From the NCBI GenBank assembly GCA_963932905.1, contig CAWVRN010000019.1, positions 1 through 64,000 of the forward strand: 64,000 bases of DNA. Direction: 5' to 3'. The translations under genes were made by a program, and so were the position numbers. Under the pieces are notes generated by a model, which saw only the letters and a program-made list of their open reading frames with translations, had not been told where the DNA came from and made no database searches. The stretch is from an uncultured Bdellovibrio sp. (lineage in GTDB: Bacteria > Bdellovibrionota > Bdellovibrionia > Bdellovibrionales > Bdellovibrionaceae). Shown piece by piece: positions 5,403-30,256 of the stretch (its first letter is position 1; each line of letters opens with the position of its first letter).

Positions 5403-5463
5403 GGATTTTCATGAGCCTGGACTTGGTCCTGATCTAGTCGAGTATGGCGAAAGTTGAAATCAA

Positions 5464-5498: not shown

Positions 5499-5571
5499 GA
5501 AAAAACCAGGAGTTTGGAAAAAGTAAAAAATTTGTTTCAGAATGAGGCAAATTTGATAAAATAAAAATATA

Positions 5572-5768
5572 ACTCTAAGAACATGGATGTTTTTAGAGTG
5601 CCGGGGAGGGTGAGAAAGAGATCGATAGCCATGGATGGTCAAGAGTCGCAAAAAAGTTTTCTCGCAGGAAACAAAGAAATAAAAGCAACATCAAGGATTG
5701 ATGCTGATTGAATTCTAAAAAAGAGTCTTTAGTGCAGGATGCACAAGATTCTCCGACTCAAACTCCCC
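5572..5768 (+). ncRNA. Putative structured RNA (sRNA or flgJ leader) with several CsrA-type GGA hairpin loops
   Basis: Hairpins ACA-TGGA-TGT (5572-5599), GCCA-TGGA-TGGT (5628-5639), CATCAA-GGA-TTGATG (5689-5703), GTGCA-GGA-TGCAC (5732-5744); long-range pairs GGGGAG/CTCCCC and GAGTCG/CGACTC. Confidence 0.5.
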
Positions 5769-5789
5769 TCTTTCTTCTTTTTAAAAATT

Positions 5790-6497: not shown

Positions 6498-7781
6498 ATG
6501 CCAACGGCGACGGCCTGTTCAAAATCAATTTTTTTTTTCTTTATCTGGGTTTTGGCTTTCAGTTTCGATTGTTTTGCTGAATTACCGGCACCTCGATTTG
6601 AAGCGTATCGAGTGTTGGGAAATCAAAAGAAAAAAGTAGAAGCGTTTTCCGGAGCCGCCAAGTGGAGCTGGCAAAATGTGGGTGTCGGTGCACAGGCTTT
6701 AAAAGCTCGCGCTGTATTCACTATACCTGAAGCATTAAGCAATGCTACGATCGAAGTTGCCAACCCATCGGCATCCATAAAAACAAAAGACAAAAAACTT
6801 CAAATAACTACCAGCGATTTGGTTACAAAAGTTAATTTCAACAGAAGTGCTACTGATATTATTCAGATTGAATTTCACATGATTGTACCTAAAGGTGGCG
6901 TTTTTGATGAAGGTTGTGAGGCATTAGGAATTCAACTTCAATTCAGCGAAAGTGAATTGCCATTTTACCTTGGGGCTCGCTGTCAGAAAACTGCAAATGC
7001 ATTTCAATTACAAATTAGTTTTCCGTCGGAAGCCGATGTTGATAAATCATCTATCTTTGATAGCCAGGGTAAAGGCGAAAGCTGGAGAGTTTACGAACTA
7101 GGTAATTTGGATGCGGCACAAGGTGAGCTAGCTAAAATCACATTAAAATTCAAAGATAAAAATTATGATTTAGGTGTCAGTTCTAATAAGAAATCAGAAG
7201 TCAAAAAGGGCGCTGCTGAAGCGAAATTTGCTGTGGGTGTTGGCTATGATTCACTAAAGTTTAAAAGTCCTGTGACTAGTGCCGCTGATTCAAAGCCTGT
7301 ATTTTTCTTGAAAGGCTTGCCGTATAAATTATTTTGGAGAATTGGTTTAGGTATAGACTTGGCAACGGCGGTTGGGTTAAGTCAGAACGAGAATTCGATT
7401 TCCTATCTGCAAATTGTTCCTTATGGTTATTTAAGATTGATTGAATCAAAATCTATGATTCTTGAAGGTCGTGGGTACTTTTCTATTTCATCGCAAACTC
7501 ATTCGGCGTCTGGTGGTGGTTATCAATACAATCGAGCCGGTGTGGGATTTCTATCAGGGTTTCGTTTGTCACCAAATTGGAAGATGATGATAGAGGCACG
7601 CACAGATTCGTTGGGATCCACAAAATTTAAAAGTCACTTTTTCGCAGATCTGCATATTTTGCGAACAAATCGTCTTTCTTGGGGATTCGGAGTTCAATCA
7701 CAAAATTTAACAGTGAATGAAACGACAACGGAACAACATCAATTTAGTCATACGCTATTTTATGGGTTGGTGGTTTATTGA
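6498..7781 (+). CDS. Hypothetical secreted protein with a probable C-terminal outer-membrane beta-barrel (paralog of next gene)
   Basis: Signal peptide; alternating amphipathic strands in the C-terminal half; terminal Tyr; shared GKGES[WY]RVYEL block. Confidence 0.7.
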   Translation: MPTATACSKSIFFFFIWVLAFSFDCFAELPAPRFEAYRVLGNQKKKVEAFSGAAKWSWQNVGVGAQALKARAVFTIPEALSNATIEVANPSASIKTKDKKLQITTSDLVTKVNFNRSATDIIQIEFHMIVPKGGVFDEGCEALGIQLQFSESELPFYLGARCQKTANAFQLQISFPSEADVDKSSIFDSQGKGESWRVYELGNLDAAQGELAKITLKFKDKNYDLGVSSNKKSEVKKGAAEAKFAVGVGYDSLKFKSPVTSAADSKPVFFLKGLPYKLFWRIGLGIDLATAVGLSQNENSISYLQIVPYGYLRLIESKSMILEGRGYFSISSQTHSASGGGYQYNRAGVGFLSGFRLSPNWKMMIEARTDSLGSTKFKSHFFADLHILRTNRLSWGFGVQSQNLTVNETTTEQHQFSHTLFYGLVVY

Positions 7782-9049: not shown

Positions 9050-9168
9050 GCATAAAAGAATTGTCTCAATTTAGGTCGTGCCAATGGTTTTATTTTTTAT
9101 ATCAGATACCGATATAATACATACTTTATAACTAAATAGGAACTTGCGCCTAGTTTAGATAGAATGGT

Positions 9169-12100
9169 TTGAGGAACGTGGGCTCACCGGGGGAAAATTT
9201 GCGGCCAAATTGGTTTCGTTTTATTTTTATAAAACATAAAGCTGTTGTCGCAACCGTATTTTTATCACTGCTTCTTACTATTCAATTTCAAAACTGCGCT
9301 CAAAGTGGAGCGACCTACGTCAACAACGGACAAACTCAAGCCTCTCCTTTCGCAGATAAAAAAGTTGTTCTAAATTCAAAGAGTTTTCAAGATTCATCCC
9401 TAGAATCAAACGATCAAGCGCAAGATGCAGCTGGTAGCGCGACCAATGACTCATCTATTGAAAAGCCCAAATTGAAATCTAGTGTTCGTCTTTTAGCGAA
9501 AGTGAATAACGTTTGTGCGCAGTCTTGGTGTTCAAATAATCAAAATAGAAGTGCTATAGTTTGCCAAGCGTATCATCAAGGACCTCGCAAAAGCCTAGAA
9601 CGAAGTTTTCAAATTTACGAAGTTCGCAATCCAGGTGAATTGAATGAAGATCAGCTTCAAGCGTGGGTTAGCAAAAGTCCTGCTGATCAACATTGTCTAA
9701 AAGGTATTTCTGAATTGCGCATGTACTCTCAGAAAGCAGCTTTCAATGACACCAATTATTCAACCCAAAAACCGGCTTTGGATTTAATTAATTTTGAAGC
9801 GGCACAGACTTATTTTCCTGTTTCTAGTTTAGGTACAGTAAAAGTCGGCGTGATTGATTCGGGTGTTGCGGCGGATACAGATCTAGGAAATGTCGCTCAA
9901 CGTGTAAATGTTAGTTCGTGGAATGCTACGGCGACTCCGCTATTTCTGGGTGGCGATCAAACTAAACCGGCCAATTTCCATGGTACGTTCGTAGCTGGTA
10001 TTATTGGGGCCACTCGAAGTAATTCTAATGGCATTGTCGGTATTGCACCGAACACTTCTATATACGCTTATGGTGTTGGTAACAGTTTAGGTCAAATGAC
10101 TAATTTGGAAATCGCCAACGCGATTTCAGATGCTGTCGTCGATCAAATGGATGTTGTGAATATGTCGTTTGGTAATTCCGACGGGTACTATAGCGATGAT
10201 CCGATGATTGCCGACGGCCTTGTAGATGGCTATAATGCCAATATTCTTTTTGTTGTGGCAGCGGGTAATAGCAGCGCGAACTTAGATACGAATCCTTCCT
10301 ATCCAGCTCAGTATTCGTTCACCATGCAAAACGTGATTACCGTAGCTGCTTCTGATAACTATGGAAGTTTAGCTTCTTTTTCAAATCGCAGTAATACATA
10401 CGTGAACATCATGGCTCCGGGGGTACAGATCATTTCTATATACCCAAGCTACCTATCTCATAGCACGGATCGTTTTGATGGAACTTCATTTGCGGCTCCG
10501 ATGGTGACGGGCGCTGCGGCTTTAGCTATCGGTTATTATCGCAAAAAAAATATGACTCTGGACGTGGGAAATGTAAGGAAGTTAATTACTTTTGACGGTG
10601 CTAAACTGCGATCTGACTTAAATCCTTATATTAAAAGTGGTGCTTTCTTAGACTTAGAACAACTAGGTAAAGCAATTCAAACGGCCTCTGCAGCTCAGCC
10701 TTTGGCTATTTCACAAGCGCGAGGTGTGGATGGTTCAGGAAATCCGACACTAGAACTGACCATCGCTTACGATTCTAGTAAGTTCGCAAATGTGGCAGCA
10801 GGATCAAAAATTGGTATCTTTGATTTATCGTCTGGTTGCAATTATTCGGCGCCATGTTTAATTCAAAGTGTAACATGGCCACCAAGTTCTGCTGTATGTA
10901 GCGGGAACAATTGCACATTTAAAGTGACTTTGAGTCGTAGCCAAGTGATCACACTGATGCCTTCAAAAGATGATGCCAATTTAAAATTGCCACTATCAGT
11001 AGCTATTTATCACGTGATCGATGGCAAAAGTGTGTACGCTGTCGATGCGGCATCCAGCATCAACGTGCGCGAAGTTGCCGGTAGCACAGGTGAGGCATTA
11101 ACGGGCGCTGTTACCAATGTGCGAATGGATATGCAATTCTTCTACGTTCAAGGTTGGACATGTTTACCAGGATCTGAGAAGGCCATACCAGTAGGAATAG
11201 TGGATAGCGGTGGTAATGCCGTTGTTGCCGATTACGCTTATGATTATCCGTTTATGGTGCCACATAGTACACCGATTGATAGTGCGGGTGATTTGATGTG
11301 GCAGTCTAATGTAGCCGGAGATACGTACACTGACGGCAAACCTCATACACGTGCCTTGATCGCATCGGGTATTGTAGCGTCGCAAACTTCGAAAAGTCGT
11401 TTCCCTGCGGGTCTAGAGGCCAATCCTCAAATGGTAAATATTTGTAAAACCCTTACAGCGGCTCACGGTTTTGAATTGATGGTCCCACTAAGTACCATTC
11501 GTAATTCGTCGCTGTCGGGTAAAACCTTTAAAATTGTTGCGAGTGATTCATCCGATTTAGCTTTAAAGGATGCTCTTGGAAATGATGTTTTTGAGTTTCC
11601 AGAGGTCGTTGATAAAGCGTCAGAGAATCAATTCACAATTACTCGTGACGATGTAAATTATGAATTGACCGGTAAACTGTGTTCAGGATCGCCATCACCT
11701 GTTGAAGTAGAAGTCAGCTTTATGAGTTACAATTTCGTTTGGGCGCTAACGAATGCTCGCCCAGATTCGATTGGAAATGGTGCGGGTTTAGTTTCAGATA
11801 CCAGTTTAACAGCAACTACCCAATATCCTTTGCCAGTCGAAACTGTACAACCAACAACGTCAACGGATATGACTTTAAAAATTACGAAAGATACGTTGAC
11901 GACAACCGATACTGATCCGTTCACACTAGCTTACAAAAATTACGCACAATATCCACCAAATGCGGCTGTTGGCGGTCCTTCTGCTGGTGGCGGTACGCCT
12001 GATAGTTTGATTGCGGCATTCGTTAGTAATGTCAATTCGTACAATAAATTTGTACGCGTAGGGACTGGTGAATCAATTCGCTATTATCAATCTCTTAAAA

Positions 12101-12669
12101 GTATTGCTGCTGGACCTGGCTGGGCAGAGAAAGCCGCTGCCTACAACACAGCTCGTTCGGATATTTTGGTGCCTACAACGAATACATTTACAAATCCGAT
12201 CTATTGGGATTACTACGATGTAGGGGAACCGTTTTCGACAAATTTAGTTGGTTATGATTTTAACTGGCATTCTAAAGAGGTCGCAAAATATTTGAAAACA
12301 ACTTATCAAATTACTTCGGCTCTTCGCGAAGTAAAAAAATTCGAAACACCTTTATCTAAAGAAACAGGTATCCTTGGTCACGGGCAACTAGCTATAAATT
12401 GGTCTGGCTCGTGTGCTTCTGGATATCAGCATGATTTATCGAGTTTAAAAATTGAGAACTATAGTAAATATTCTCCATACTATGGAACAGGTGCGAATGG
12501 TTTCTGGTTAACTAGCCAACAGCCAAAACAGTACCAAGCCATCGCCGTGGCTGAAGCAATGAAGAAATTGCCAATTACATTAAGATTCTTTCAGGACGGA
12601 AAACTTGTTTTACATCTTGAATCAGATTCTAGTTCTAATTTTAACCAGGTAAATTACAATTTCAGATAG
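9169..12669 (+). CDS. Subtilisin-family (S8) serine protease, probable lipoprotein, with a long unassigned C-terminal region
   Basis: Triad motifs VGVIDSG, HGTFVAG, GTSFAAP; oxyanion AAGN; hydrophobic N-terminus ending QFQNC; exact start uncertain. Confidence 0.9.
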   Translation: MRNVGSPGENLRPNWFRFIFIKHKAVVATVFLSLLLTIQFQNCAQSGATYVNNGQTQASPFADKKVVLNSKSFQDSSLESNDQAQDAAGSATNDSSIEKPKLKSSVRLLAKVNNVCAQSWCSNNQNRSAIVCQAYHQGPRKSLERSFQIYEVRNPGELNEDQLQAWVSKSPADQHCLKGISELRMYSQKAAFNDTNYSTQKPALDLINFEAAQTYFPVSSLGTVKVGVIDSGVAADTDLGNVAQRVNVSSWNATATPLFLGGDQTKPANFHGTFVAGIIGATRSNSNGIVGIAPNTSIYAYGVGNSLGQMTNLEIANAISDAVVDQMDVVNMSFGNSDGYYSDDPMIADGLVDGYNANILFVVAAGNSSANLDTNPSYPAQYSFTMQNVITVAASDNYGSLASFSNRSNTYVNIMAPGVQIISIYPSYLSHSTDRFDGTSFAAPMVTGAAALAIGYYRKKNMTLDVGNVRKLITFDGAKLRSDLNPYIKSGAFLDLEQLGKAIQTASAAQPLAISQARGVDGSGNPTLELTIAYDSSKFANVAAGSKIGIFDLSSGCNYSAPCLIQSVTWPPSSAVCSGNNCTFKVTLSRSQVITLMPSKDDANLKLPLSVAIYHVIDGKSVYAVDAASSINVREVAGSTGEALTGAVTNVRMDMQFFYVQGWTCLPGSEKAIPVGIVDSGGNAVVADYAYDYPFMVPHSTPIDSAGDLMWQSNVAGDTYTDGKPHTRALIASGIVASQTSKSRFPAGLEANPQMVNICKTLTAAHGFELMVPLSTIRNSSLSGKTFKIVASDSSDLALKDALGNDVFEFPEVVDKASENQFTITRDDVNYELTGKLCSGSPSPVEVEVSFMSYNFVWALTNARPDSIGNGAGLVSDTSLTATTQYPLPVETVQPTTSTDMTLKITKDTLTTTDTDPFTLAYKNYAQYPPNAAVGGPSAGGGTPDSLIAAFVSNVNSYNKFVRVGTGESIRYYQSLKSIAAGPGWAEKAAAYNTARSDILVPTTNTFTNPIYWDYYDVGEPFSTNLVGYDFNWHSKEVAKYLKTTYQITSALREVKKFETPLSKETGILGHGQLAINWSGSCASGYQHDLSSLKIENYSKYSPYYGTGANGFWLTSQQPKQYQAIAVAEAMKKLPITLRFFQDGKLVLHLESDSSSNFNQVNYNFR

Positions 12670-12686
12670 ATAGAAAGGTACGTTGA

Positions 12687-15101
12687 GTGTTTATTGGGGT
12701 GGTTCGTTTTTATTTATTAGCTTTCATCATTGCTTGCTTGGCGGGTTGTACCGGAAAAGTAAGTACGGAATCTAGCGTGCAAAACGCGGTCGAAGCGATG
12801 GCACAGCAGAGTTCCGTTACGTTAATTTCTAATTCGACCCAATCTCAAAATAAATGTGAAACAGGGAATAAAATTGTTGTTCAAGTAGCTTTGTCGACAG
12901 TTGCTAAATTTTATTGCCGTGATAAATCAAAATTAATGGATTCAGTTAAACTAGGTCCAGTGTGTGATGGTGGCGTAACGATCAAGAATTTGACTGTAAA
13001 TCGAGACGTAAAAGATTGTCATGAACTAACGGTGTGCGGTCGATCGCACAGTTCGGCGGTTGATATCACGAAGCGTATCGACGGTACGACAGTTCAACGG
13101 TTAACGTTTGAAAATTTGCCTTGGGGTTGTGAAGGGCACATCGAAGCATCTTCGGATCCAAAATTTGAGAGCGGAGAAATACAAAGTATTTCGATGCAAA
13201 TTCTGCCTCCGTCATGCCCGTTCTGTGAAGCGTTCAACGGAGTTAGCTGTAATCAGTGCAGTACGGCTAGTAGTGGCGAAACTATGTTTGTGGCCGGACA
13301 AATTATTCCTAAAACCTGCACTGGTAATTGTGCTCAATGTAAATACCCACCGACGGGAAGTCCTTCTGCCAGTTTTGTCTCCAGCAGTGAAATGGTGGCA
13401 CATGCCGGTATTCGTCCATTCTATACTTCAGGTAATGCGATTTGTGGTCAATTGTGTACACAGATTCAACAAATTCGCGTTTGCAATAACGGCAAATGGG
13501 TACCTGGTGATGATACTGTTCTGCATACTCAGTGTCAGGAGCCAGCGCCTTCAAGTTGCATGACGGGAAATAGCGTAGGGTTTTTTAAGGGTCTAACCAG
13601 AAAATTCGGTTTGAATTCAGGTTTGCAAACGATGGCAGCTGGTGGCGACGGTGTTACGTGTGCGCAATGTTCGGCGGGGTCGTGCGCGACATGTACGACC
13701 GCTGGAGGATCACAAGGCTACAAGTTATATACTCAGACATCGGTTCCTAACGGATCATCATGTGACTCTGTTAGCCAGTGTCAAACCTGTGTTGACAACT
13801 TATTCCAAGGCAATCCCGCTTATAAATACGGATCATGTTCTGTGCTTGCGGCGTCATGTACGCAGCGTTTGCTAAACTCACCAGTGGCATCTGGGTCTAA
13901 ACAAACGTTCTATAACGGTGGTAGTTGTGACCCGATTGTTTTGACGTGTGCTAATGGATCTTGGAAAGATTCAAATAATGCCGCTGTAACACAAACCACT
14001 GCGGATAGTTATTCCGATCAGTGTGTACAGTCGTCAGATTGTGTAACTAAAGGTGGAATTTCGATTTTAAATAACACCAATCAATATGTGTTCGATACTA
14101 ATTTAGTGGATTCGACAGATAATTGTTATTCAACGAATCACTTTCGGTACATAGGGTGTGCAAACGGTGCTGTGTCACCTAGTGATCCGGGGACTTCATT
14201 TAAATACAAAGAATGTAAAACTAAAACTTGCGTCGATCCACGTGATCCTGCAAAAACAATTAATGCAGGTGTTGTGGTTTCCTATTGGGCTGTTGGCGAA
14301 GCGACCTGTTCAAGCCTACCAGATCCAGCGACGTATTGTAATAACAACAAAGTTACCTTTACCTGTGCACCAACGGGTGGGGCTGCGGTTATTTCCCCAG
14401 CGAATGCAACTGGCCTTGCGGGCTATACCTACTCTGCCTGCAAAGTTCCACCGTCGTGCAGTGCTTGTGTGGTTAACAAAACAGACGCTAACAATATCAA
14501 TGTTTCAATCGGTAGTTCAACGATGCTATTTAAAAATAAACAGTCAGATTTATGTCAAAGCGTTGGAAAGTCGTTTACCTGTCAATCATCGGGCAATAGT
14601 TCTCCTAAATTAGTGGATTCAACTGGGGCCGGTGAAAAACATGAAGACTATCCTTACTTGAATTGTAGTCCAACTGGCGGCGGAGATGAAGGCAGCTTGG
14701 GTGGAACCGGCGGTGGTAACGGAAATGATAATGGTCCTGGTTCTGCAATTAAGAAACGATTTGGAGCAACGGATGGCAGTGGTGGAGCTGGTTTAGGTTG
14801 TGTGGATGCCGTTTCATGTGCCCTACAATTTTCGGGAGCTTCGCTTCCGACGAAAACTAATTTTACTCCATGTGTTCTTCCGTGGCCGTCTCGCGTAAGC
14901 GAAATTGAATTCTATGGAACAATCGTAGCGTTCAGTAGTCGTCGCGCTACGATCGCTTCCGGTACAAATGATACCGTCTGTGTGACGAAACCAGATTTAT
15001 GTTCTAACCATCGTCAATCACGTACGTGCCAATACCCAACATGGACAGGCGCGGAGGAATTTAAATATCCAAACTGTGTCGAGAAAGCGAGTTGCCCATG
15101 A
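12687..15101 (+). CDS. Cysteine-rich repeat lipoprotein
   Basis: Lipobox LAGC; repeated modules like G..F/Y....C.....C.NG.W/F.G...Y..C; late CVLPW motif. Confidence 0.75.
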   Translation: MFIGVVRFYLLAFIIACLAGCTGKVSTESSVQNAVEAMAQQSSVTLISNSTQSQNKCETGNKIVVQVALSTVAKFYCRDKSKLMDSVKLGPVCDGGVTIKNLTVNRDVKDCHELTVCGRSHSSAVDITKRIDGTTVQRLTFENLPWGCEGHIEASSDPKFESGEIQSISMQILPPSCPFCEAFNGVSCNQCSTASSGETMFVAGQIIPKTCTGNCAQCKYPPTGSPSASFVSSSEMVAHAGIRPFYTSGNAICGQLCTQIQQIRVCNNGKWVPGDDTVLHTQCQEPAPSSCMTGNSVGFFKGLTRKFGLNSGLQTMAAGGDGVTCAQCSAGSCATCTTAGGSQGYKLYTQTSVPNGSSCDSVSQCQTCVDNLFQGNPAYKYGSCSVLAASCTQRLLNSPVASGSKQTFYNGGSCDPIVLTCANGSWKDSNNAAVTQTTADSYSDQCVQSSDCVTKGGISILNNTNQYVFDTNLVDSTDNCYSTNHFRYIGCANGAVSPSDPGTSFKYKECKTKTCVDPRDPAKTINAGVVVSYWAVGEATCSSLPDPATYCNNNKVTFTCAPTGGAAVISPANATGLAGYTYSACKVPPSCSACVVNKTDANNINVSIGSSTMLFKNKQSDLCQSVGKSFTCQSSGNSSPKLVDSTGAGEKHEDYPYLNCSPTGGGDEGSLGGTGGGNGNDNGPGSAIKKRFGATDGSGGAGLGCVDAVSCALQFSGASLPTKTNFTPCVLPWPSRVSEIEFYGTIVAFSSRRATIASGTNDTVCVTKPDLCSNHRQSRTCQYPTWTGAEEFKYPNCVEKASCP

Positions 15102-17809
15102 AGTTTTTTGGCTTACTTGCTTTAGTCATAGTTAATATGATGGTAAATTTGGGTTGTTCGGAACAAGTGAATACACCTAAATCTGAATCCGCATTGCAAA
15201 TGGAAATGACGTACACGAAAGCGTGCTCGGATGGAAAATGTCCGTGCGATTCGCCGTTAGGTCCCATTGTCGATGGCGGCACGGCTTTAGCGTATGATAC
15301 AAATCAAGTCGCTTGCGGCGCTACCTGTGAAACTCGTGCCGTAACGTTAGTTTGTAAAAATGGAAAATTTGACCGGGATACAAAACCATTGTCGTTTTCT
15401 TGCCAGGTATCAGCGTGTAAGGCATGTACGGTAGGAAATAATCAAGTTCCGCATGGTTTTACTGTCCAAATGTTCAATTCAAACTCAGTTGCCTGCGGAA
15501 AAAGCTGTGATGACAACAAGCGCGCTTTGGTTTGTAAGGATGGAAAACTGCAAGGCAGTTTAGCGGGGCCATCGGCGGATGGTAAAGACGGCGTGTATTC
15601 TTCAGCCAGCTGTTTACCTCAAACATGCAACTGTTCAATTCCTGACGGCGGCAGCATGACAGCCGGCGGGGAAATGAAGTTCTATAAATCCAGCACCGGT
15701 ACATGCGATATTCCGTGTGATGATTCAAAAAATATGGTGAAGCGTACCTGCGCGCCAGTCAACGGTTCTAGCACAACGTTTGCGTTTAGTGGGGATACAA
15801 GTTTTTCTAAATCAAGTTGTACAGAACGTCCGACGAATTTATGTGGTTGTACTCTTCCAGATACAAATAAAACCGCGTTAGGTCACGGAAAATCTAAAGA
15901 TATTTTTGGTGCCTCAGCTCCCTACAGTTGCAATACTTGCGATAATATTAAAATTACGGCTTATTGCGATAGTGGGACATTATATGACAAACCATCTACG
16001 GATTCGACTCGAGTTGTATTAAGTCCTTCGCAGTTAAATTCACATAAATCATTATCGTGTGATCCGGGTTTAACTCCAGACTGTACGATTAACAATATTT
16101 GTGTGGCTGATAAAACAAGTAAAACACTGTATGGTAAAACGCCATTAACATGCGCGGATAACCCCAGTGATTCACAGGCTCTATTTTCTTGTGCAAACAA
16201 AGCATTGCTTCAAAACGGTGTGGCCTATAATGCAACGACTGATATTTACAAAAACTCTTGGCAAGTGAGTGCGCCTTCGAATTCATGCGTGGGTTGTGCA
16301 TTACCTTGGGGTGGATCGGTCGGAGTTGGCTCAACGGTTTCTATGTATAAGAGTTCTGGCAATTCATCGAATTCGTGTGGTACTGGATGCAAACAAATAC
16401 AGATGAAATGTTTGGCTGATGGAAGTTTTGATTCCGGCGACGCCAGTGTAAATTTAGATTATAAAAACAATAAATCAAACTACACTCAAACATGTAACAA
16501 CACCTGCTCACAAGAGGGCGGTGGTGCACCTCCAAGATTCTGTCTTCTACCATGGCAAAATAGTTTTGTTTCCGCTGATGCTTTAATTCCGATGTGGAAA
16601 AAGAAGACGGTGTACTATGGAGATAGTTGCCAGAACTACTTTCGACTAGGTCGTTGTATGCTAAGTACCGGTACGTTCGATGCTGGCTTTCAATATATAT
16701 ACAAAAGTTGTACGGAGCTTCCTTTTCAAGGTGTTCGTATCGATAACGTAAGCCCGAAATTTGTAACATCAGCCGGCGGTACCATCACGTTAACAGGAGC
16801 GGGTTTTGCGGCAGGTATGCAAGTCGCAATTGGTAAAACTACATGTTCAAATGTTTCTGTGTCTAGTGCCACCCAATTGACATGTACGGCTCCTGCAAAT
16901 TCATCATTAGATAGCTACGATGTATTAGTGACTGTGGGTACTAAAAAAGCCATCAGTCCAAGTGGATTGTCGTACTATGGTGGCCAATGTACGGGCGGGC
17001 CGGGACAAACTGTTTTCAAATACACTGGCAGCAATCAAACATTCACTGTCCCTGCAGGTTGTAAATCGATAACGATCACAGCTTGGGGTGCCGGTGGTGG
17101 TGGCCGACAAATTTCAGTATCTGGAGGATTTATCGGTCAGGTCGGGGGCGCTGGTGGTTTTGCAAAAGGAACCCTCGCAGTCACTCCTGGTGCATCGTAC
17201 ACAGTGGTTGTCGGTGGCGGTGGTTATGGCGGTTACTTCAGTGGATCTAGTGGTGGCGGTTACGCAGGTGTATTCTCGTCTACATCCATAGCAGCTGCTA
17301 ATGCGGTTATCATAGCCGGTGGTGGTGGCGGTGCCGGTGATCCAACTGGATGCAATAAAGGTGGTACCGGCGGCGAAGGCGGTGGTGCTACGGGTGGAAC
17401 GCATGGAACATGCTCAGGAACTGGTGGTTCGCAAAGTGCCGGCGGCACAGGTGGCGCTTCAGCAAAAGCGGGGGAATCACTGAAAGGTGCTTCTATTGGA
17501 TCTTCGGTAGCTGGGTACGCTGGTGCGGGCACTGGAAATTCATATACGTCCGGTGGTGCCGGTGGTGGTGGATACTTTGGTGGTGGCGCTGGATCAGAAG
17601 TCACAGGCCTAGCCGGTTCAGGTGGTGGAGGCAGCGGTTATCTGTCACCATCCATTACGAATGGCACAACTACAACAGGCAACGGTCGTATGCCTCCGCA
17701 AACTAGCGACTCTAAATATCAATTCGGCATTGGTATGGGCGGAAATGACCCTACTGGTGGAACGGGATCGTCTACCGGTGGAAACGGTATGATCGTTATA
17801 AGTTACTAG
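15092..17809 (+). CDS. Cysteine-rich repeat lipoprotein with an IPT/TIG domain and a C-terminal glycine-rich domain
   Basis: Lipobox NLGC; same Cys module; VSPK...GGTITLTGAGF...LTCTAP (IPT/TIG); FKYTGSNQTFTVPAG...AWGAGGGG...GGNGMIVISY (glycine-rich domain). Confidence 0.8.
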   Translation: MPMKFFGLLALVIVNMMVNLGCSEQVNTPKSESALQMEMTYTKACSDGKCPCDSPLGPIVDGGTALAYDTNQVACGATCETRAVTLVCKNGKFDRDTKPLSFSCQVSACKACTVGNNQVPHGFTVQMFNSNSVACGKSCDDNKRALVCKDGKLQGSLAGPSADGKDGVYSSASCLPQTCNCSIPDGGSMTAGGEMKFYKSSTGTCDIPCDDSKNMVKRTCAPVNGSSTTFAFSGDTSFSKSSCTERPTNLCGCTLPDTNKTALGHGKSKDIFGASAPYSCNTCDNIKITAYCDSGTLYDKPSTDSTRVVLSPSQLNSHKSLSCDPGLTPDCTINNICVADKTSKTLYGKTPLTCADNPSDSQALFSCANKALLQNGVAYNATTDIYKNSWQVSAPSNSCVGCALPWGGSVGVGSTVSMYKSSGNSSNSCGTGCKQIQMKCLADGSFDSGDASVNLDYKNNKSNYTQTCNNTCSQEGGGAPPRFCLLPWQNSFVSADALIPMWKKKTVYYGDSCQNYFRLGRCMLSTGTFDAGFQYIYKSCTELPFQGVRIDNVSPKFVTSAGGTITLTGAGFAAGMQVAIGKTTCSNVSVSSATQLTCTAPANSSLDSYDVLVTVGTKKAISPSGLSYYGGQCTGGPGQTVFKYTGSNQTFTVPAGCKSITITAWGAGGGGRQISVSGGFIGQVGGAGGFAKGTLAVTPGASYTVVVGGGGYGGYFSGSSGGGYAGVFSSTSIAAANAVIIAGGGGGAGDPTGCNKGGTGGEGGGATGGTHGTCSGTGGSQSAGGTGGASAKAGESLKGASIGSSVAGYAGAGTGNSYTSGGAGGGGYFGGGAGSEVTGLAGSGGGGSGYLSPSITNGTTTTGNGRMPPQTSDSKYQFGIGMGGNDPTGGTGSSTGGNGMIVISY

Positions 17810-17822
17810 TGTTCGTCGATAA

Positions 17823-18980
17823 CTATTTTAGTTTTATTTCACCCAGTTGCGAGATCTCAAACAGTACTTTCCGTTTTGGATTTTTGTTTAAATCCAATTT
17901 AATGTCCGGAATTTCGATGTTTCCTCGAGTCGAGAAAATCACGAGTTTGCCTTCGGCTGGGGCCGGATTTCCATATTGATTGTAAAACGTGATTTCTGCT
18001 TCGTATGTTCCCGCAATGACCTTATCGGCTTGCCAGATCTCGGCTCCAGGACCTCGTCTACTATCTAAGACTATTTTTCCTGGATAATTTAGGAATTCTT
18101 TGTTTTTGAATGTAAATTTTTTACCGTTAGGGTCTTTAATAACTAAATCTAAATCATGTTCATTGGTAAACCAGTTTAAAACTATAGCCAGGAACGATCC
18201 TTTTTGTTCTAAGGTCTGCAGCTTAGCTTCCAATTCTTTGTTTTTTTGATCTAGTATTTTAGTTTTTTCTGATTCTGAGATGTATTCCTTTTCGAAATTT
18301 TTCTCTTTTGGCTTTTCTTTGTCCTTGTCTTTTTCTTTTTCGATTTTATCAATGGCCGCGACTTTTCTTGCTAGTTCTTCTTTCATTTTAGCAATTTCTT
18401 CGTCTTTAGCTTTTATTTCGTCTTTCTTTTTTAGTAGCTCATTTTCATTCTTTTTTAATTTTTCTTCCGCGACTACTTTTTCTCTAGTTAGTTCCGCCGT
18501 GCTTTTGTTTTCATTTTGGATGGAAGCTATAGAACGATTCTTTTCTTGGTTTTCAGTTTCCAATCGTTTCAGTTCTTCCCTGGATTTTGTGTTTTCAGAA
18601 ACCTGCAGAGCCAAATCCTCTTTTAATTTTTTAGATTCGTCTTCCATAGCAGTAAATTTAGTTTTCAGGTCTGCGGCTTCCGCAATCAGTTTCGCTTGGT
18701 CGGCCAGTTGGGCCGTTAACGCTGCGATTTGGGCTTGGTAGTCTGGTAGATTAACTTTAGGATCCTTGACCTGATCTTGTGCAAATTTTTGTTGAATCGA
18801 CTCTTTCATCTTTTTAGTCGCTTCAGGGTCTTGCATGGCGTACAACATGACGAAAAGACCAAAAAGAAGTGTCATCATATCCGCATAGGATACGAGCCAG
18901 CGTTCATCGATATGTTCTTCGTGATCGCCTTCGATATATTTCTTTTTGTAAATGATCTTAACGTTTTTGTCTTTAGCCAT
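17823..18980 (-). CDS. MotB-like protein: MotB transmembrane helix + coiled coil + YfaP/DUF2135-like domain, no OmpA-like domain
   Basis: WLVSYADMMTLLFGLFVMLYA with the conserved Asp; long K/E-rich heptad region; C-terminal LNWFTNEHDLDLVIKDPNG...LDSRRGPGAE...GTYEAEITFY. Confidence 0.8.
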   Translation of the reverse strand: MAKDKNVKIIYKKKYIEGDHEEHIDERWLVSYADMMTLLFGLFVMLYAMQDPEATKKMKESIQQKFAQDQVKDPKVNLPDYQAQIAALTAQLADQAKLIAEAADLKTKFTAMEDESKKLKEDLALQVSENTKSREELKRLETENQEKNRSIASIQNENKSTAELTREKVVAEEKLKKNENELLKKKDEIKAKDEEIAKMKEELARKVAAIDKIEKEKDKDKEKPKEKNFEKEYISESEKTKILDQKNKELEAKLQTLEQKGSFLAIVLNWFTNEHDLDLVIKDPNGKKFTFKNKEFLNYPGKIVLDSRRGPGAEIWQADKVIAGTYEAEITFYNQYGNPAPAEGKLVIFSTRGNIEIPDIKLDLNKNPKRKVLFEISQLGEIKLK

Positions 18981-19820
18981 CTAAGCGACCGTTTTGGCGT
19001 TTGTCTGTTGTCTTTGATCTCTGATTTCCGTTAAGTAATCTTTGATTTTCTCTTTGAAGGCCATACGTTCACCAATTGGGATGTGACCAATTGTTTTTTC
19101 GACCAGGAATGCGAATGTACATTGATTGTTCATTGCACGAACAGAGTCCGCGATCATTTTGCGCTGCTTAACTTCTTCGTAGGCGATTTTATTTGCGTAG
19201 TCAGATAGTGGTAAGAAAATTAAGTTTGCTACGGCGATACCCCAGAAAGTAGCGACTAGGGCGATGGCCATTGCCGGACCGATAGTTTCAGCGCCGCCAG
19301 ATCCTAAACGAGTCATCATCACGATCATACCCGTCGATGCACCCAATAGACCGAACGCAGGTGGAAATTTTGCGATCGCATTTAGGATTTTAGCATCGTT
19401 TTGGTATTCGCTTTTTATTTGTTCAATACGGGTATCAAGAATTTCTTCAAGTTCATGATCGTCGAATTGATTTTTCGAAATCATTTTCACAGATTCAACT
19501 AGGAATGGATGATAATGAGTGTTCATAAAAAACTGTTCAATACGATTTTCTTTTAGGAATGAATACGATCTGAAAATTTGTTCACCAATGACGTAGCTAT
19601 CGACTTTACGTTTAAGGATAACTCCAGAAATAAAAAAGTTAACAAAACCAAGGAGCTTTTTCGCGGGAAACGCAATCAGTGCGGCCGCTACGGTACCACC
19701 AATAACTAAAATTAAAGCATGGGGATCCAGAAAGAGTTTAGGATTTGGAGACGATGAAAGTACACCGAACCAGATAACACACGACGCAGCTAAAAAACCC
19801 AACACAGTTGAAATATTCAT
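18981..19820 (-). CDS. MotA/PomA-family proton-channel protein
   Basis: LILVIGGTVAA, PAFGLLGASTGMIVMM, IGPAMAIALVATFWGIAVANLIFLP; abuts the motB-like gene. Confidence 0.88.
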   Translation of the reverse strand: MNISTVLGFLAASCVIWFGVLSSSPNPKLFLDPHALILVIGGTVAAALIAFPAKKLLGFVNFFISGVILKRKVDSYVIGEQIFRSYSFLKENRIEQFFMNTHYHPFLVESVKMISKNQFDDHELEEILDTRIEQIKSEYQNDAKILNAIAKFPPAFGLLGASTGMIVMMTRLGSGGAETIGPAMAIALVATFWGIAVANLIFLPLSDYANKIAYEEVKQRKMIADSVRAMNNQCTFAFLVEKTIGHIPIGERMAFKEKIKDYLTEIRDQRQQTNAKTVA

Positions 19821-19827
19821 GTGTTCC

Positions 19828-19854
19828 TTATCGTGTTTTTGTTCATCATTTCTA
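19828..19854 (-). promoter_or_regulatory. Possible sigma28 (FliA) promoter of the motA-like gene
   Basis: Minus strand TAGA-N15-CACGATAA versus consensus TAAA-N15-GCCGATAA; 7 nt before the ATG. Confidence 0.4.
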
Positions 19855-20101
19855 GTCTAGATTCGCTGCAGGACGTTCCCGTCTAGTCGGGGAGTCTAGT
19901 GCCGTCGGCTCTTGCGGTGGTCAACCAAAGTCGAGCGTCAAAATTTTATAGGGTGGCCAAAAATATTTTGGTCCTGATTCACCGAACACCGTCGAAATTC
20001 CGTCATAGATGAAAGGTTATGTGGTCTGGATGGCTCCGTGGGCTTGAGGTTCGTCCAGATATTCTGGTCTTTAGAATGGAAAGTAGGAAAAAAAGTCCAG
20101 A

Positions 20102-20117
20102 TGGCACTTTGATTGCT
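20102..20117 (+). promoter_or_regulatory. sigma54 (-24/-12) promoter of the fliL operon
   Basis: TGGCACTTTGATTGCT, a near-perfect TGGCAC-N5-TTGC. Confidence 0.8.
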
Positions 20118-20168
20118 GCTAAAGGTTTTAAGGGGAAAAGTGTCATTTCTTCGTTAGGGAGGATTGAA

Positions 20169-20720
20169 GTGGCTGAAGACAAAGCAGCAGCGGCAGCACC
20201 GGCACCAGCGGCAGCGCCAGCATCGGGTGGATCTAAGACGAACATTATTTATGTCGTACTTATAGTTATTAATATGTTTTTCTTAGCCGGCGTAGGATGG
20301 ATGATCTACCAAGGAAAGAAAAAGGACAATGCCGAGCCAAAGATCGAGCACGTTATTAAAGGCGAGCACGATACTCAAGAGGCTGAGCACAAGGAAGAGA
20401 AGCAATTCATTGGGAAAGTAGTTCCACTGGAAACCTTTATCGTGAACCTAGCGGGCTCTAAAGGCCGCAAAGTTGCGAAAGTGATGATGGAATTAGAACT
20501 GAAGGACAATGAAGGTAAAAACGTAGCAGACGAAATCGACAAGCGTAAAGCGCAAGTCCGCGACATAATTATCATTATCTTATCTTCGAAAAAGTATGAG
20601 GAAGTTTCTAATAAAGAAGGAATTGAAAACTTGAAAGGTGAGATCAAAGACACCATCAATTCATTCCTGACGAATGGAAAAATCTCGAACGTGTTCTTCA
20701 CTGAGTTTATTTACAACTAA
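20169..20720 (+). CDS. fliL: Flagellar basal body-associated protein FliL
   Basis: Single TM helix, PLETFIVNL, QVRDIII, VFFTEF; GTG 20169 follows GGGAGG and lies downstream of the sigma54 site. Confidence 0.9.
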   Translation: MAEDKAAAAAPAPAAAPASGGSKTNIIYVVLIVINMFFLAGVGWMIYQGKKKDNAEPKIEHVIKGEHDTQEAEHKEEKQFIGKVVPLETFIVNLAGSKGRKVAKVMMELELKDNEGKNVADEIDKRKAQVRDIIIIILSSKKYEEVSNKEGIENLKGEIKDTINSFLTNGKISNVFFTEFIYN

Positions 20721-20730
20721 GGACTGTTGA

Positions 20731-21732
20731 ATGAATCAAGTACTATCGCAAAACGAAGTTGATGCACTCTTAGCCGCGGTCTCCGATGGCGATGTGGGCT
20801 CACCGGAGGTCGCTAAAGAGAGCATCGGATCGGTTAAATCGTCGGACGATAAAAAGATCGTATCATATGATTTAACAAGCCAGGATAGAATTATCCGTGG
20901 CCGATTGCCTCAGCTTGAAGTTATCTATGAAAAATTTATGAGAGCGTTCCGTGTATCTTTGTCGTCGTCTCTTAGAAAAATTGCGTCGATTTCTTTAACA
21001 AGTACTGAGTTCTTAAAATTCGGTGAGTTTATCAATACATTACCAATGCCAACCTGTATGTCAGTTCTACGTTTTAACAATCTGCGTGGTTCGGCATTGA
21101 TGGTTATCGAAAGTAAACTCGCCTACGCATTAGTCGATTCTTTCTTCGGTGGTGCCGATCGCCCGTACACTAAAATTGACGGTAAAGATTTTACACCAAT
21201 TGAATTAAGCATCGTTCGTAAAGTTGTTGAACTTGCAATTCACGATCTAGAAAATGCTTGGGCTAGCGTTGAAAAAATCGGTTGTAGTTTTGTTCGTACC
21301 GAGGTTAATCCTCAGTTCGTTGGTATCGTTCCGCCGACAGACGTGGTTATCGCATCGACTTTTGACGTCGAGCTAGAAAACGCAACTGGTACGATTTCTA
21401 TGGTTATTCCGTACGCGACAATCGAGCCGATCAAACAAAAATTATCTACAGGTTTCCAAGTTGAGTCTGATCAAACAGATAAAAAACTTTGGACAGCAAT
21501 CATCAAAGAACAGTTGATGGATACAGAGCTAGAGATTCGTGTGAATCTAGGCGAAACATCTATTTTGCTGGAAGATCTAATGAGTTTAAAAGTTGGGGAT
21601 GTTATCCCTTTAACTCAGGATGCTACTGGCGAATTAGATATCAATGTTGAGAATGTTAAGAAATTTAGAGGCTATTACGGCAATCATCACGGAACTACGG
21701 CAGTGCAAGTCACTAGACCAGTTATAAAGTAA
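20731..21732 (+). CDS. fliM: Flagellar motor switch protein FliM
   Basis: LSQNEVDALL CheY-binding N-terminus, FFGG, EVNPQF, SpoA C-terminus. Confidence 0.96.
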   Translation: MNQVLSQNEVDALLAAVSDGDVGSPEVAKESIGSVKSSDDKKIVSYDLTSQDRIIRGRLPQLEVIYEKFMRAFRVSLSSSLRKIASISLTSTEFLKFGEFINTLPMPTCMSVLRFNNLRGSALMVIESKLAYALVDSFFGGADRPYTKIDGKDFTPIELSIVRKVVELAIHDLENAWASVEKIGCSFVRTEVNPQFVGIVPPTDVVIASTFDVELENATGTISMVIPYATIEPIKQKLSTGFQVESDQTDKKLWTAIIKEQLMDTELEIRVNLGETSILLEDLMSLKVGDVIPLTQDATGELDINVENVKKFRGYYGNHHGTTAVQVTRPVIK

Positions 21733-21745
21733 AAGGAGTTAGAAA

Positions 21746-22129
21746 ATGTCTGACGATCAATTGGATAATTTAGCCGAACAACTGGTACAAGAAGCCGAAG
21801 CAATGACTTTGTCTACTGATAAGCCAGCGGCTCCAAAAGCAGCAGGAAAAGCAGAACCAAAAGGCAACGACAGAAATCTACAACTGATTTTAGATATTCC
21901 GCTAAAGTTGTCAGTTGAATTGGGTCGTACAAAAATGCCAGTCAGTGAATTACTTAACCTAACTCAAGGTAGTGTTATCGAGCTAAATAAACTAGCCGGT
22001 GAACCAATGGAAGTTATGGTTAACGACAAACTAATCGCGCGCGGTGAAGCCGTCGTGGTAAATGAAAAGTTCGGTGTGCGTTTAACAGATGTTATCTCGC
22101 CAGCTGAACGTGTTGAACAATTGAAATAG
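21746..22129 (+). CDS. fliN: Flagellar motor switch protein FliN
   Basis: ILDIPLKLSVELGR...GSVIELNKLAGEP...IARGEAVVVNEKFGVR. Confidence 0.96.
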   Translation: MSDDQLDNLAEQLVQEAEAMTLSTDKPAAPKAAGKAEPKGNDRNLQLILDIPLKLSVELGRTKMPVSELLNLTQGSVIELNKLAGEPMEVMVNDKLIARGEAVVVNEKFGVRLTDVISPAERVEQLK

Positions 22130-22158
22130 AACTTAATTAATTAAATAGGGAACGACCA

Positions 22159-22929
22159 ATGAAATGGATTTTAGCGGTTTTCTTTCTAGCATTTAACGTA
22201 ATGGCCGAATCAGGATTAGCGGAGCTGCCTGTGGACGTGCAAAACGAAATTAAGACTACCGAAGCCTCGACAAAGAAAGACCTGAAGAAAGCAGTTACAC
22301 AAACGGAATCGGTTACGGTTGCGGAATCGGTTTCGGCAACGGAAACGGTTGCGGATGCGGCGACAGAAACAGCTCCGGTGTTGAACAAAGCTACAGCTAA
22401 AGAAAGCGAAATCCCACTGTCTTTAGAAACGACCAAAAAAGTTTCTTCAAGTGAAAATACATATTTCCGCATTATCATGATTATCGCGTTGCTTGGAACT
22501 TTAGCATCGGGAATGTGGTTCTTTGTCCGCAAGAACAAAATGCAAAATATTAAAAGAAATAAAAACGAAATCAAGATCTTGGCTCAGCATTATTTGGGTC
22601 CAAAGAAAAGCCTGGCGGTTGTGCGCGTAGCAGGTGAATCCATCTTGGTAGGTATAACAGATGCACATATCAACATGATCAAAACACTATCTTTAATGGA
22701 TGATGAATTGCCAGAAGTAACAAGTCAGAATTTCAAATCTGAACTCAGTGACCGGTTAGAAGACGAAGATATGATAGTTCAGCAGCCAACATCAAATACG
22801 TATAATAGAAAATCACAAATCAACACGAAAACGGCAACGGCCTCAACAGACGACGAGATGGATGAGTTTTCTATTAAAGGCATCAAAGACCTAGTTTCTT
22901 CAAAATTGAAAAACATGAGGTCTATCTAA
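22159..22929 (+). CDS. fliO: Flagellar biosynthesis protein FliO
   Basis: TM helix then LGPKKSLAVVRVAGESILVGIT; between fliN and fliP. Confidence 0.85.
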   Translation: MKWILAVFFLAFNVMAESGLAELPVDVQNEIKTTEASTKKDLKKAVTQTESVTVAESVSATETVADAATETAPVLNKATAKESEIPLSLETTKKVSSSENTYFRIIMIIALLGTLASGMWFFVRKNKMQNIKRNKNEIKILAQHYLGPKKSLAVVRVAGESILVGITDAHINMIKTLSLMDDELPEVTSQNFKSELSDRLEDEDMIVQQPTSNTYNRKSQINTKTATASTDDEMDEFSIKGIKDLVSSKLKNMRSI

Positions 22930-23699
22930 TGTTTAAATCAGGGAAGTCATTTTTCAATGAGAGTATATTTTGGAAGATCTTACTGGTCTTCTTGGTGACT
23001 TCGCCATGGACATTTGCGCAAGTAACTCTGCCGTCGGTGAACTTAGGTTTTAAAACGACAGATAACCCAAATGAAATAGTAAGCGCGATAAAAATTATCA
23101 TGGTTATGACGGTGTTAACTTTAGCACCAGCGATCTTGATTATGATGACTAGTTTTACGCGTATAATAATCGTATTTTCATTCTTACGTCAGGCTCTGGG
23201 CGTAAATCAAATGCCTCCAAATCAGCTTTTAGTAGGTCTTTCACTGTTCCTGACGTTTTTCATTATGGGACCTACTTTTGACGAATTAAATACCAAAGGT
23301 GTTCAGCCATTTTTAGCTAATAAAATTTCACAAGATCAAGCAATCACTGAAACTTTGGCGCCACTTCGTCGGTTTATGTTCACTCAAACACGCGACCAAG
23401 ACCTTGGTCTATTTGTAAAATTAGCAAAAATTGAGAAGCCTAAAACGCGTGCGGACGTTCCTACGCTAGTTTTGATACCCGCGTTTGTACTGTCTGAACT
23501 TAAGACAGCTTTCCAAATTGGTTTTATTATTTTTCTTCCATTTTTAGTAATCGATATCGTGGCATCAAGTGTCTTAATGGCAATGGGGATGATGATGCTA
23601 CCACCTGTCGTAATTTCGATGCCTTTAAAAATTATGCTTTTCGTTTTGGTTGACGGTTGGAGCTTGTTAGTCGGCTCGATGGTTAAAAGCTTCGGATAA
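22929..23699 (+). CDS. fliP: Flagellar export protein FliP
   Basis: MMTSFTRIIIV, PPNQ, SELKTAFQIGF, MGMMMLPP, FVLVDGW. Confidence 0.97.
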   Translation: MFKSGKSFFNESIFWKILLVFLVTSPWTFAQVTLPSVNLGFKTTDNPNEIVSAIKIIMVMTVLTLAPAILIMMTSFTRIIIVFSFLRQALGVNQMPPNQLLVGLSLFLTFFIMGPTFDELNTKGVQPFLANKISQDQAITETLAPLRRFMFTQTRDQDLGLFVKLAKIEKPKTRADVPTLVLIPAFVLSELKTAFQIGFIIFLPFLVIDIVASSVLMAMGMMMLPPVVISMPLKIMLFVLVDGWSLLVGSMVKSFG

Positions 23700-23708
23700 G
23701 GAATTAAA

Positions 23709-23981
23709 ATGACAGAAGAGTTAATTTTAAAATTAGGACAAGATGCCTTACGAACGACAGCGATGTTGGCCGCGCCGCTATTAGTGAGCACGTTAGTGAT
23801 CGGTTTGCTAGTGAGTATCTTTCAAGCTCTAACACAAATCAATGAAGCTACATTGACGTTCGTTCCCAAGATGATTTTGGTGGCGTTAATCTTGGTTTTT
23901 GCTGGGCCTTGGATGTTAGACATTTTATCTGCTTACACGATCGACTTATTTGAAAATATAGCCGTAATGGTGAGAGAATAA
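23709..23981 (+). CDS. fliQ: Flagellar export protein FliQ
   Basis: GLLVSIFQALTQINEATLTFVPK, GPWM. Confidence 0.96.
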   Translation: MTEELILKLGQDALRTTAMLAAPLLVSTLVIGLLVSIFQALTQINEATLTFVPKMILVALILVFAGPWMLDILSAYTIDLFENIAVMVRE

Positions 23982-30176: not shown

Positions 30177-30256
30177 TTGTGAAAGTTGGACTTTTCCGAA
30201 CGCTGACATTTGTTACACTGATTAAGACACACGACAATCCATGGAAAGGGTACTGA

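Follow-up and report, generated by a model that had tools for sequence, protein, structure and literature searches.

A MotB-type subunit with a coiled-coil stalk and a beta-sandwich tip

The stretch of DNA analysed here (the window) comprises 64,000 nucleotides of a contig from an uncultured Bdellovibrio sp. and carries, at 17823..18980 on the minus strand, an open reading frame (ORF) with an ATG start for a MotB-type subunit of 385 aa (P0001), here called motB-cc. Its product joins the membrane helix of flagellar stator proteins to a long coiled coil and a YfaP/DUF2135-like domain. The adjacent gene (18981..19820, minus strand), whose stop abuts the motB-cc start, encodes the motA partner (279 aa; Pfam MotA_ExbB), and we refer to the motA plus motB-cc family as the module. 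A candidate outer-membrane partner, unk427 (P0219), is encoded at 6498..7781 on the plus strand and is followed by its tandem paralogue unk423 (P0220; 7778..9049, plus strand), which is 24% identical; the barrel family of these two proteins is designated unk42x.

The initial annotation, made from the sequence, had described in MotB-cc an intact MotB helix with the ion-binding Asp, and Pfam agreed: the sole match was MotB_plug, at residues 12-66 (18783..18947, minus strand), with 59.3 bits against a cut-off of 24 and covering profile positions 2-58 of 58. A profile search of the whole genome placed MotB_plug at identical coordinates. This region comprises a plug helix and the transmembrane (transpore) helix with Asp34, which lies in WLVSYADMMTLL (residues 28-39). 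In a 34-member family alignment D34 is invariant, indicating a single transpore helix with a conserved ion-binding Asp; E26, W28, Y32, T37 and G41 are invariant as well, and an S....F pattern is conserved downstream of the membrane helix, in the plug region. The PDB profile matches of the family correspond to the transmembrane-plug regions of MotB/PomB, and NCBIfam returned sub-threshold partial matches only, to MotB/MotD models and via the N-terminus. One relative of 573 aa (P0017) has two MotB_plug stretches before the coil and the tip, an apparent N-terminal duplication.

Neither the OmpA domain (PF00691) nor the ExbD family domain (PF02472) gave a Pfam match in MotB-cc at E<=1, and no Pfam match to VWA, TonB or GldL/GldM was found in the motor pair. 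As a positive control for the OmpA search, PF00691 was detected in all 11 tested MotB proteins of a canonical class from related genomes (C1, described below), which combine plug and OmpA domains. The lack of an OmpA-like domain, also proposed at the outset, was therefore borne out, both by Pfam and by the TerD-like fold predicted for the tip.

The stalk, which extends over residues ~67-258 (~192 aa; 18207..18782, minus strand), is rich in Lys and Glu (43 K and 35 E in residues 51-262) and contains three Pro and no Gly. Its description as about 190 aa of K/E-rich heptads was upheld by a hydrophobic periodicity that peaks at 3.5 residues with a z of 5.4, a value as high as which was reached in none of 500 shuffles. 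The same periodicity was present in 124 relatives (median z 4.4; 86% above z 2), and the linker from helix to tip has a median length of 196 aa (5-95% range 122-293) in the 125 of 227 proteins that match both motifs. Since a coiled coil rises ~0.148 nm per residue, ~190 residues would give a stalk of roughly 28 nm, on the order of the periplasm width and predicted to be long enough to span the periplasm.

For the C-terminal tip (residues ~259-385; 17826..18206, minus strand), AlphaFold2 modelling of residues 251-385 with 85 aligned sequences yielded an all-beta sandwich of nine strands with a predicted local distance difference test score (pLDDT) of 94.3. The residues of the C-terminal motif (W270, H275, D276, D278, D283, P284, G286, D306, G310-P311-G312, E314, G324, Y326 and N334) are all present and invariant in the family alignment, except D283 and P284, each of which is at least 90% conserved. 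Comparison with E. coli K-12 YfaP by hhalign gave a probability of 97.4% and an E-value of 1e-11 over 115 columns (YfaP residues 139-253), the structural neighbours in the ESM Atlas were DUF2135 clusters (TM by query 0.75-0.83), and one relative (P0071) is labelled YfaP (DUF2135 family) by its source. The proposed likeness to YfaP/DUF2135 thus stood in profile and structure comparisons but did not extend to the Pfam DUF2135 model (PF09906), which has only 48 positions: residues 251-385 gave no match at E<=10, and of the window domain and 12 relatives a single protein reached 17.8 bits against a cut-off of 22. Because hhalign and the Atlas neighbours point to the same family, although this short model misses the tip, we consider the identification to be right, and homology of the tip to the YfaP/DUF2135 C-terminal domain to be real at the profile level. 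A DUF2135-like domain is also found in mid-protein (residues 176-298) in P0203, a 381-aa protein without MotB_plug; the domain therefore occurs in other architectures too.

Among solved structures, the best fold matches of the tip model were TerD proteins, in Foldseek (3ibz, 2qz7 and 2kxt; TM 0.56-0.61, E 9e-4 to 4e-3) as well as in an exhaustive VIA search (2qz7_B, Z 9.3, 122 aligned, root-mean-square deviation (rmsd) 3.8; 2kxt, Z 8.2). Ranked behind them were two subtilisins, Tk-SP (Z 7.5) and KP-43 (Z 6.3), matched through their C-terminal jelly-roll domains with 25-30% identity across ~80 residues; no OmpA-like chain was among the structure matches listed. The tip gave no Pfam match at E<=10 to the TerD sequence family, which is marked by Ca2+-binding motifs. 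The modelled fold is thus TerD-like and not OmpA-like, a result on which the AlphaFold2 model, VIA, Foldseek and hhalign concur. On such a scaffold, the invariant H275, D276, D278, D306 and E314 suggest a putative metal site. Our literature search found no papers on DUF2135 and no function of YfaP in print; no paper on YfaP by title was among the matches listed, and one preprint names YfaP in passing only (bioRxiv 10.1101/2025.03.20.643886).

Descent from flagellar stators and distribution of the module

The window MotA matched ten solved chains at E<=1e-3, all of them flagellar MotA/PomA aligned over the full length (E 9e-22 to 2e-6); ExbB/TolQ chains were absent from these 10 matches. Across 20 module MotA proteins the channel residues are well kept (G164 and A185 in 20/20, P153 and P204 in 18/20). 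We also inspected the neighbourhood of 20 other motB-cc copies (+-9 kb), which together with the window make 21 loci: MotA adjoins motB-cc in 18 of the 20 by BLAST, and a divergent MotA does so in locus L134. Since the plug is kept and the A subunit is MotA/PomA-like, the sequences clearly point to descent of the motor pair from flagellar stators.

For comparison, 20 other MotB_plug loci of the same and related genomes were used as control, which together with a further locus of the window's own genome (L003) form two classes. In the C1 class, MotB is of the plug plus OmpA type and MotA has ~260 aa. In the C2 class, the MotB plug occurs without a Pfam OmpA match (7 of 7 tested, L149-L155, and L003), and the MotA of L003, the sole C2 MotA scanned, carries MotA_N. 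The charge pair through which E. coli MotA contacts FliG, which we take to be R90 and E98, discriminates these classes from the module. When all were aligned jointly, a basic residue stood at the R90-equivalent position in 12/12 C1, 8/8 C2 and 7/20 module MotA proteins, and Glu occupies the E98-equivalent position in 12/12 C1 and 8/8 C2 proteins and in none of the 20 module proteins (17 gaps, 2 Gln, 1 Phe). The charge pair for FliG contact, conserved in both canonical classes of the same and related genomes, is thus lost in module MotA. The same joint alignment separated module MotA, together with that of an odd pair (L156), from C1 plus C2 with a support of 0.67. In L156 (G205 contig C11, 125600-130100), a MotB of 263 aa combines a module-type helix (WLVSYADMMT) with a normal OmpA domain, and its MotA is without the FliG-contact motif and groups with module MotA; possibly, this pair holds an intermediate position in evolution between the canonical stators and the family with the coiled coil.

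The window's genome (G000) has 13 MotA_ExbB-family matches and three MotB_plug genes, namely motB-cc, a 31%-identical paralogue of the same architecture on contig C1 (L001/L135), and that of L003 (contig C2, 214888-218022), which encodes a MotB of 313 aa. No MotB with plug and OmpA domains was found in this genome, in which six OmpA-domain ORFs lie elsewhere, and L003, the probable main flagellar stator, would therefore have an unrecognised periplasmic domain.

A word-seeded database search with MotB-cc identified 184 relatives, whose sources, as far as named, are metagenome-assembled genomes (MAGs) of Bdellovibrionota, Bdellovibrionales or 'Deltaproteobacteria'; PF00691 was found in 0 of the 113 best-listed and in 5 of the 8 weakest listed. 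With the C-terminal 135 residues alone, 415 representative proteins were matched at E<=1e-3 and 207 at 1e-10, and among the 150 matches listed the tip lies mostly at the C-terminal end of proteins of 120-580 aa. With relatives in these numbers, the architecture is not a product of chance. A search of genome contigs with the family alignment gave, in its best 80 loci, two full-length relatives (from a Pseudobdellovibrio MAG and a Bdellovibrionales MAG); it was dominated by the generic MotB helix pattern and so carries no information on range beyond the phylum. Within Bdellovibrionota the tip domain is scattered over seven families, being present in 26 of 401 sampled genomes (22 of 337 of high quality; 18 of 203 genera) and absent from all 100 searched genomes of family code f20 and all 26 of genus code g4, many of which are complete. 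Morehouse and colleagues reportedly described three motAB pairs of Bdellovibrio in 2011. Because the tip domain is missing from the 26 genomes of genus code g4, which we guess to be that of the model species, the known stator pairs of the latter are probably not of the module type. In 24 of the 25 other carriers there are two or more MotB_plug genes, so that others exist beside that of the module.

Metagenome runs from groundwater and wastewater, belonging to three studies (X1, X5 and X6), contained DNA nearly identical to that of the window. A rhizosphere RNA-library run (X18) contained contigs with 90-95% similarity to fliL/fliM, to a fragment of motA and to the tip-encoding portion of motB-cc; these come from a relative, DNA carry-over is possible, and they are not counted as evidence of expression.

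The outer-membrane barrel and the gene neighbourhood

No family above noise was found by Pfam and NCBIfam in unk427 or unk423. The AlphaFold2 model of unk427 (pLDDT 85.7) shows, after a signal peptide, an all-beta N-terminal region (residues 33-229), a low-confidence linker and ten long strands ending in an aromatic C-terminal residue. In VIA searches the C-terminal half matched pOmpT (Z 20.4, 183 aligned, rmsd 2.2), OpcA (Z 18.9) and the Legionella Dot/Icm porin I (Z 17.8), and Foldseek also assigned it to 10-stranded outer-membrane barrels. In the N-domain, for which the ESM Atlas neighbours all had TM <0.4 and the VIA and Foldseek lists were filled by barrel matches, the motif GKGE.W..Y.L was noted; C140 and C162 (a Cys pair), G191 and K192 are invariant in the family. 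Because the usual barrel topology puts an N-terminal domain in the periplasm, the N-domain of unk427 is expected in the same compartment as the MotB-cc tip.

With a locally built profile, unk42x was found in 15 of the 20 loci, and a 16th copy lies just beyond the fetched range in the orthologous cassette of a same-genus genome (G349:C2:1093-3626). Genome-wide, unk42x occurs in 28 of the 401 genomes, 22 of which are among the 26 tip-domain carriers; the 6 genomes with the barrel only gave weak partial matches (E 1.4e-14 to 2.6e-6). Copy numbers of tip and barrel also track each other (2 and 3 in G000, 3 and 4 in G349, 2 and 2 in G156). The genes are arranged as motA-motB-cc-barrel with overlapping or abutting ends in L135, L132 and L118, as barrel-motA-motB-cc in L121 and L133, and as motA-motB-cc-three lipoproteins-barrel, on one strand and with overlapping ends, in L129-L131. 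In L135 the paralogous pair on contig C1 (8337-9485 and 9482-10789) is translationally coupled. The unk42x barrel is thus the most conserved neighbour of the module and, with strong genomic support, the candidate for a dedicated outer-membrane partner. The original guess of a partner in the outer membrane gains from this linkage, and contact between tip and barrel is what we would predict from it. In L119 and L124 (genomes G289 and G093, genus code g19), MotB-cc has 468 and 529 aa, no unk42x was detected in the genome, and the genes nearby encode PmbA/TldD peptidases, or a cell-wall hydrolase together with an HD-domain protein.

In the window, a 13.3-kb block (6498-19820) contains in succession unk427, unk423, an S8 subtilase of 1166 aa with a lipobox-like N-terminus (9169..12669, plus strand; Pfam Peptidase_S8, E 7.6e-45), a Cys-rich putative lipoprotein of 804 aa (12687..15101, plus strand; 6.7% Cys), a Gly-rich putative lipoprotein of 905 aa (15092..17809, plus strand; 16.6% Gly), motB-cc and motA. 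The Gly-rich protein has weak Gly_rich_2 and TIG matches and a CoaZ repeat match of E 6.8e-6, below cut-off. The block is preceded by flgF, flgG, flgA, flgH, flgI and a rod-binding-domain gene, in this order (1199-6458), and followed by fliL, fliM, fliN, fliO, fliP, fliQ, fliR, flhB, flhA, flhF, a MinD-like gene and fliA (20019-31039). Since the orthologous cassette of the same-genus genome (L116) does not adjoin fliL, the block looks like an insertion between the rod-binding-domain gene and fliL. No sigma-70-type site was found upstream of motA (19821-20018).

Homologues of the S8 and Cys-rich proteins flank the motor in 5 of the 20 other loci, belonging to three family codes; a Gly-rich homologue is also present in 4 of these five (where the locus reaches), and a sixth locus has one alone, at the end of a contig. 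In at least 11 of the 21 loci, large proteins with lipobox-like N-termini lie beside the motor, the call being made by eye as a hydrophobic stretch followed by Cys, which holds for most such proteins. Other loci contain different large proteins, with Lcl_C, NHL, Ig-like, fn3 or Peptidase_S74 domains, and in several a sensor kinase, a SpoIIE-type phosphatase or a Ser/Thr kinase lies beside motA. Elsewhere in the window, positions 43861-50590 hold a T2SS-F-like gene and, after it, genes for three FHA-domain proteins (543, 363 and 699 aa) that have YscD-like cytoplasmic domains; an ordinary ExbB/ExbD pair of 209 and 133 aa lies at 52269-53299.

Proposed function and comparison with known systems

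With a probability of about 0.55, we favour the view that motA and motB-cc form a stator-derived 5:2 motor, whose B subunit spans the periplasm as a transducer and passes force on to a dedicated barrel in the outer membrane. That such a motor would no longer drive the flagellum is suggested by the loss of the rotor-contact motif, by the replacement of the wall anchor with a periplasm-length coil and a different tip, by the tight linkage to a private outer-membrane barrel, and by the canonical stators present in nearly all carriers. A pentameric MotA channel ring would surround two MotB-cc transpore helices carrying Asp34, with the plug helix gating the channel, and the two MotB-cc chains would extend across the periplasm as a parallel coiled coil of ~190 residues, each ending near the outer membrane in a YfaP/DUF2135-like beta-sandwich. 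There the tip would engage the periplasmic N-domain of the 10-stranded barrel (unk427/unk423), ion flow would turn or pull the stalk relative to MotA, and the barrel would receive the work, so that the large lipoproteins (S8, Cys-rich, Gly-rich) could be exposed, released or moved at the surface.

A more far-reaching version, clearly less probable and put forward tentatively, is that of a stator turned inside out, in which the MotA ring has given up its rotor contact and the MotB dimer forms a rotating or winding 28-nm shaft plugged into a small barrel of its own. With the proton-motive force as the drive, the barrel would expose, fire or move giant surface lipoproteins, namely the subtilase and the Cys-rich adhesin-like proteins. 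Part of the Bdellovibrionota would then possess a compact and hitherto undescribed machine at the cell surface, serving adhesion, gliding or prey attack.

Several observations weigh against a non-flagellar transducer and leave room for a different explanation, namely that of an auxiliary flagellar stator, in which MotA drives FliG while MotB-cc is held by its tip on an outer-membrane or sheath-base protein, as a lineage-specific anchoring for a sheathed polar flagellum. In the window the pair lies inside the main flagellar region, beside fliL and divergent from fliL-fliM-fliN-fliOPQR-flhBA, and in G364 the module directly follows fliA. FliM was found in all 25 other carrier genomes, so that co-occurrence cannot separate the module from flagella. 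The closest solved relatives are flagellar MotA/PomA and MotB, and the window MotA has Lys at the R90-equivalent position and Glu95 nearby, in a cytoplasmic loop whose alignment is gappy across module MotA. C2 MotB proteins also have no Pfam OmpA match, yet they are paired with MotA proteins that retain the FliG-contact motif, and the missing OmpA match alone is therefore weak evidence of a non-flagellar role. By the profile used, unk42x is absent from 4 of the 26 carriers (G093, G289, G173 and G209, which include both g19 genomes), G084 and G298 carry the barrel gene on a contig other than that of the module, and the lipoproteins are assigned their role from gene neighbourhood. The retained plug helix is reported to be specific to flagellar stators (PMC12505986), and several stator sets per flagellum are known in Bdellovibrio (PMC11323537). 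On the other hand, the FliG-contact Glu, present in 20/20 canonical MotA proteins, is found in 0/20 of the module; flagellar genes flank only 2 of the 21 loci (the window and L130), the same-genus cassette being away from fliL; the module is confined to 26 of 401 genomes, and nearly all the other carriers have further MotB_plug genes. Moreover, the module occurs in up to three copies, every one accompanied by a separate barrel gene and often also by a lipoprotein set of its own. An auxiliary stator is thus unlikely, although we take it seriously; it is because of the flagellar context in the window and G364, the flagellated carriers, and a binding and movement which are deduced that we hold the transducer to little better than even odds.

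A rather improbable alternative is a motor of the Tol-Pal type for envelope tethering or maintenance, whose stalk and tip would link the two membranes, via the barrel or a different ligand of the DUF2135 domain, and so stabilise or remodel the envelope; the lipoproteins would be incidental to it, with no dedicated cargo. The trans-envelope geometry of the stalk would suit such a task, as would the 9 or 10 of 21 loci without a large lipoprotein set, which have only the barrel and a histidine kinase, SpoIIE phosphatase or Ser/Thr kinase; in the ESM Atlas, DUF2135 clusters elsewhere co-occur with LysM or TPR. The sporadic distribution is nevertheless unlike that of a housekeeping envelope system, the S8/Cys-rich/Gly-rich trio recurs in three taxonomic families, and the motB-cc and barrel genes of L129-L131 enclose those of the lipoproteins, on the same strand and with overlapping ends. 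Very improbable is a Zorya-like or other anti-phage defence motor. It would account for a sporadic, island-like distribution in multiple copies and for weak PADLOC subtilase/IetS matches of the neighbouring S8 protease, and the family profile weakly touches, via the transpore helix, the N-terminal chains of 8vvi and 8qyd, which we take to be ZorB-type. However, PADLOC gave no match for MotA and only LmuB/JetC coiled-coil noise for MotB-cc, a ZorC/ZorD-like nuclease or helicase gene is absent from the conserved neighbourhood, the long coil is predicted to be periplasmic and on the B subunit rather than cytoplasmic on the A subunit, and the partners are envelope proteins.

Ion motors of the 5:2 kind (MotAB, ExbBD, TolQR, GldLM, ZorAB) are emerging as a general route by which energy of the inner membrane reaches distant parts of the envelope. 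If the transducer reading holds, the module would be the first case to have arisen from a genuine flagellar-type stator, plug included, with a coiled-coil B subunit spanning the periplasm and a dedicated barrel; our literature search found nothing on a MotB with a coiled coil and without a peptidoglycan-binding domain. It would also offer a three-gene system (motA, motB-cc and barrel) for asking whether a B-subunit dimer acts as a rotating or pulling shaft, and a first functional context for the uncharacterised DUF2135/YfaP domain. The module further suggests that predatory bacteria handle large surface lipoproteins in a motor-dependent way; their machinery for gliding and adhesion is described as an open problem in a 2026 review (PMC13104615).

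Compared with the flagellar MotA5B2/PomA5B2 complexes (6ykm, 6ysl, 6ysf, 8brd, 9lu9), the module has a MotA homologous over its full length, a MotB transpore helix with Asp and plug, and adjacent genes with motA first. It differs in having, instead of an OmpA-like peptidoglycan-binding domain, a coil of ~190 aa and a DUF2135-like tip, in the loss of the FliG charge pair across the family, and in a conserved neighbour that is a barrel gene rather than flagellar genes. E. coli YfaP, a 258-aa protein of the yfaS operon without a motor part, shares the tip domain, and TerD-fold proteins (2qz7, 2kxt, 3ibz) share its beta-sandwich without belonging to the same sequence family. In Zorya, the long coil is borne by ZorA in the cytoplasm and ZorB binds peptidoglycan; ZorAB resembles the module as a MotAB-related 5:2 motor with a very long coiled coil outside the flagellum, but in the module the coil is on the B subunit, and PADLOC did not match the motor.

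TonB-ExbBD and TolA-TolQR, which we regard as functional analogues together with GldLM, are likewise proton-driven 5:2 motors that sit in the inner membrane and are linked through the periplasm with a protein of the outer membrane, but their transducer is a third protein outside the pentamer and ExbD/TolR are short, whereas in the module the B subunit would itself be the long element. In GldLM/PorLM, the motor of gliding and type IX secretion, a dimeric subunit of a 5:2 motor reaches across the periplasm to a complex in the outer membrane, with surface adhesins and secreted enzymes as the proteins served (PMC13104615). The likeness to the module lies in this dimeric periplasm-spanning subunit; the proteins are non-homologous, and GldM consists of globular domains in a chain instead of a coiled coil. 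Of published ideas, the closest is that of the TPH-vWA transducers, in which a B-subunit-like transpore helix with the proton-binding Asp is fused directly to a periplasm-crossing linker and a globular tip; it is proposed to rotate inside the pentamer and so to exert force on the outer-membrane side (Mol Biol Evol 2025, PMC12204202). MotB-cc is considered here under the same concept, but the transducers described there have a TolQ-like partner, a vWA tip and no plug, and occur as heterologous pairs in Proteobacteria and Verrucomicrobia (PMC12204202), whereas the module has a MotA/PomA-like partner, a plug, a coiled-coil linker, a DUF2135-like tip and a linked barrel gene.

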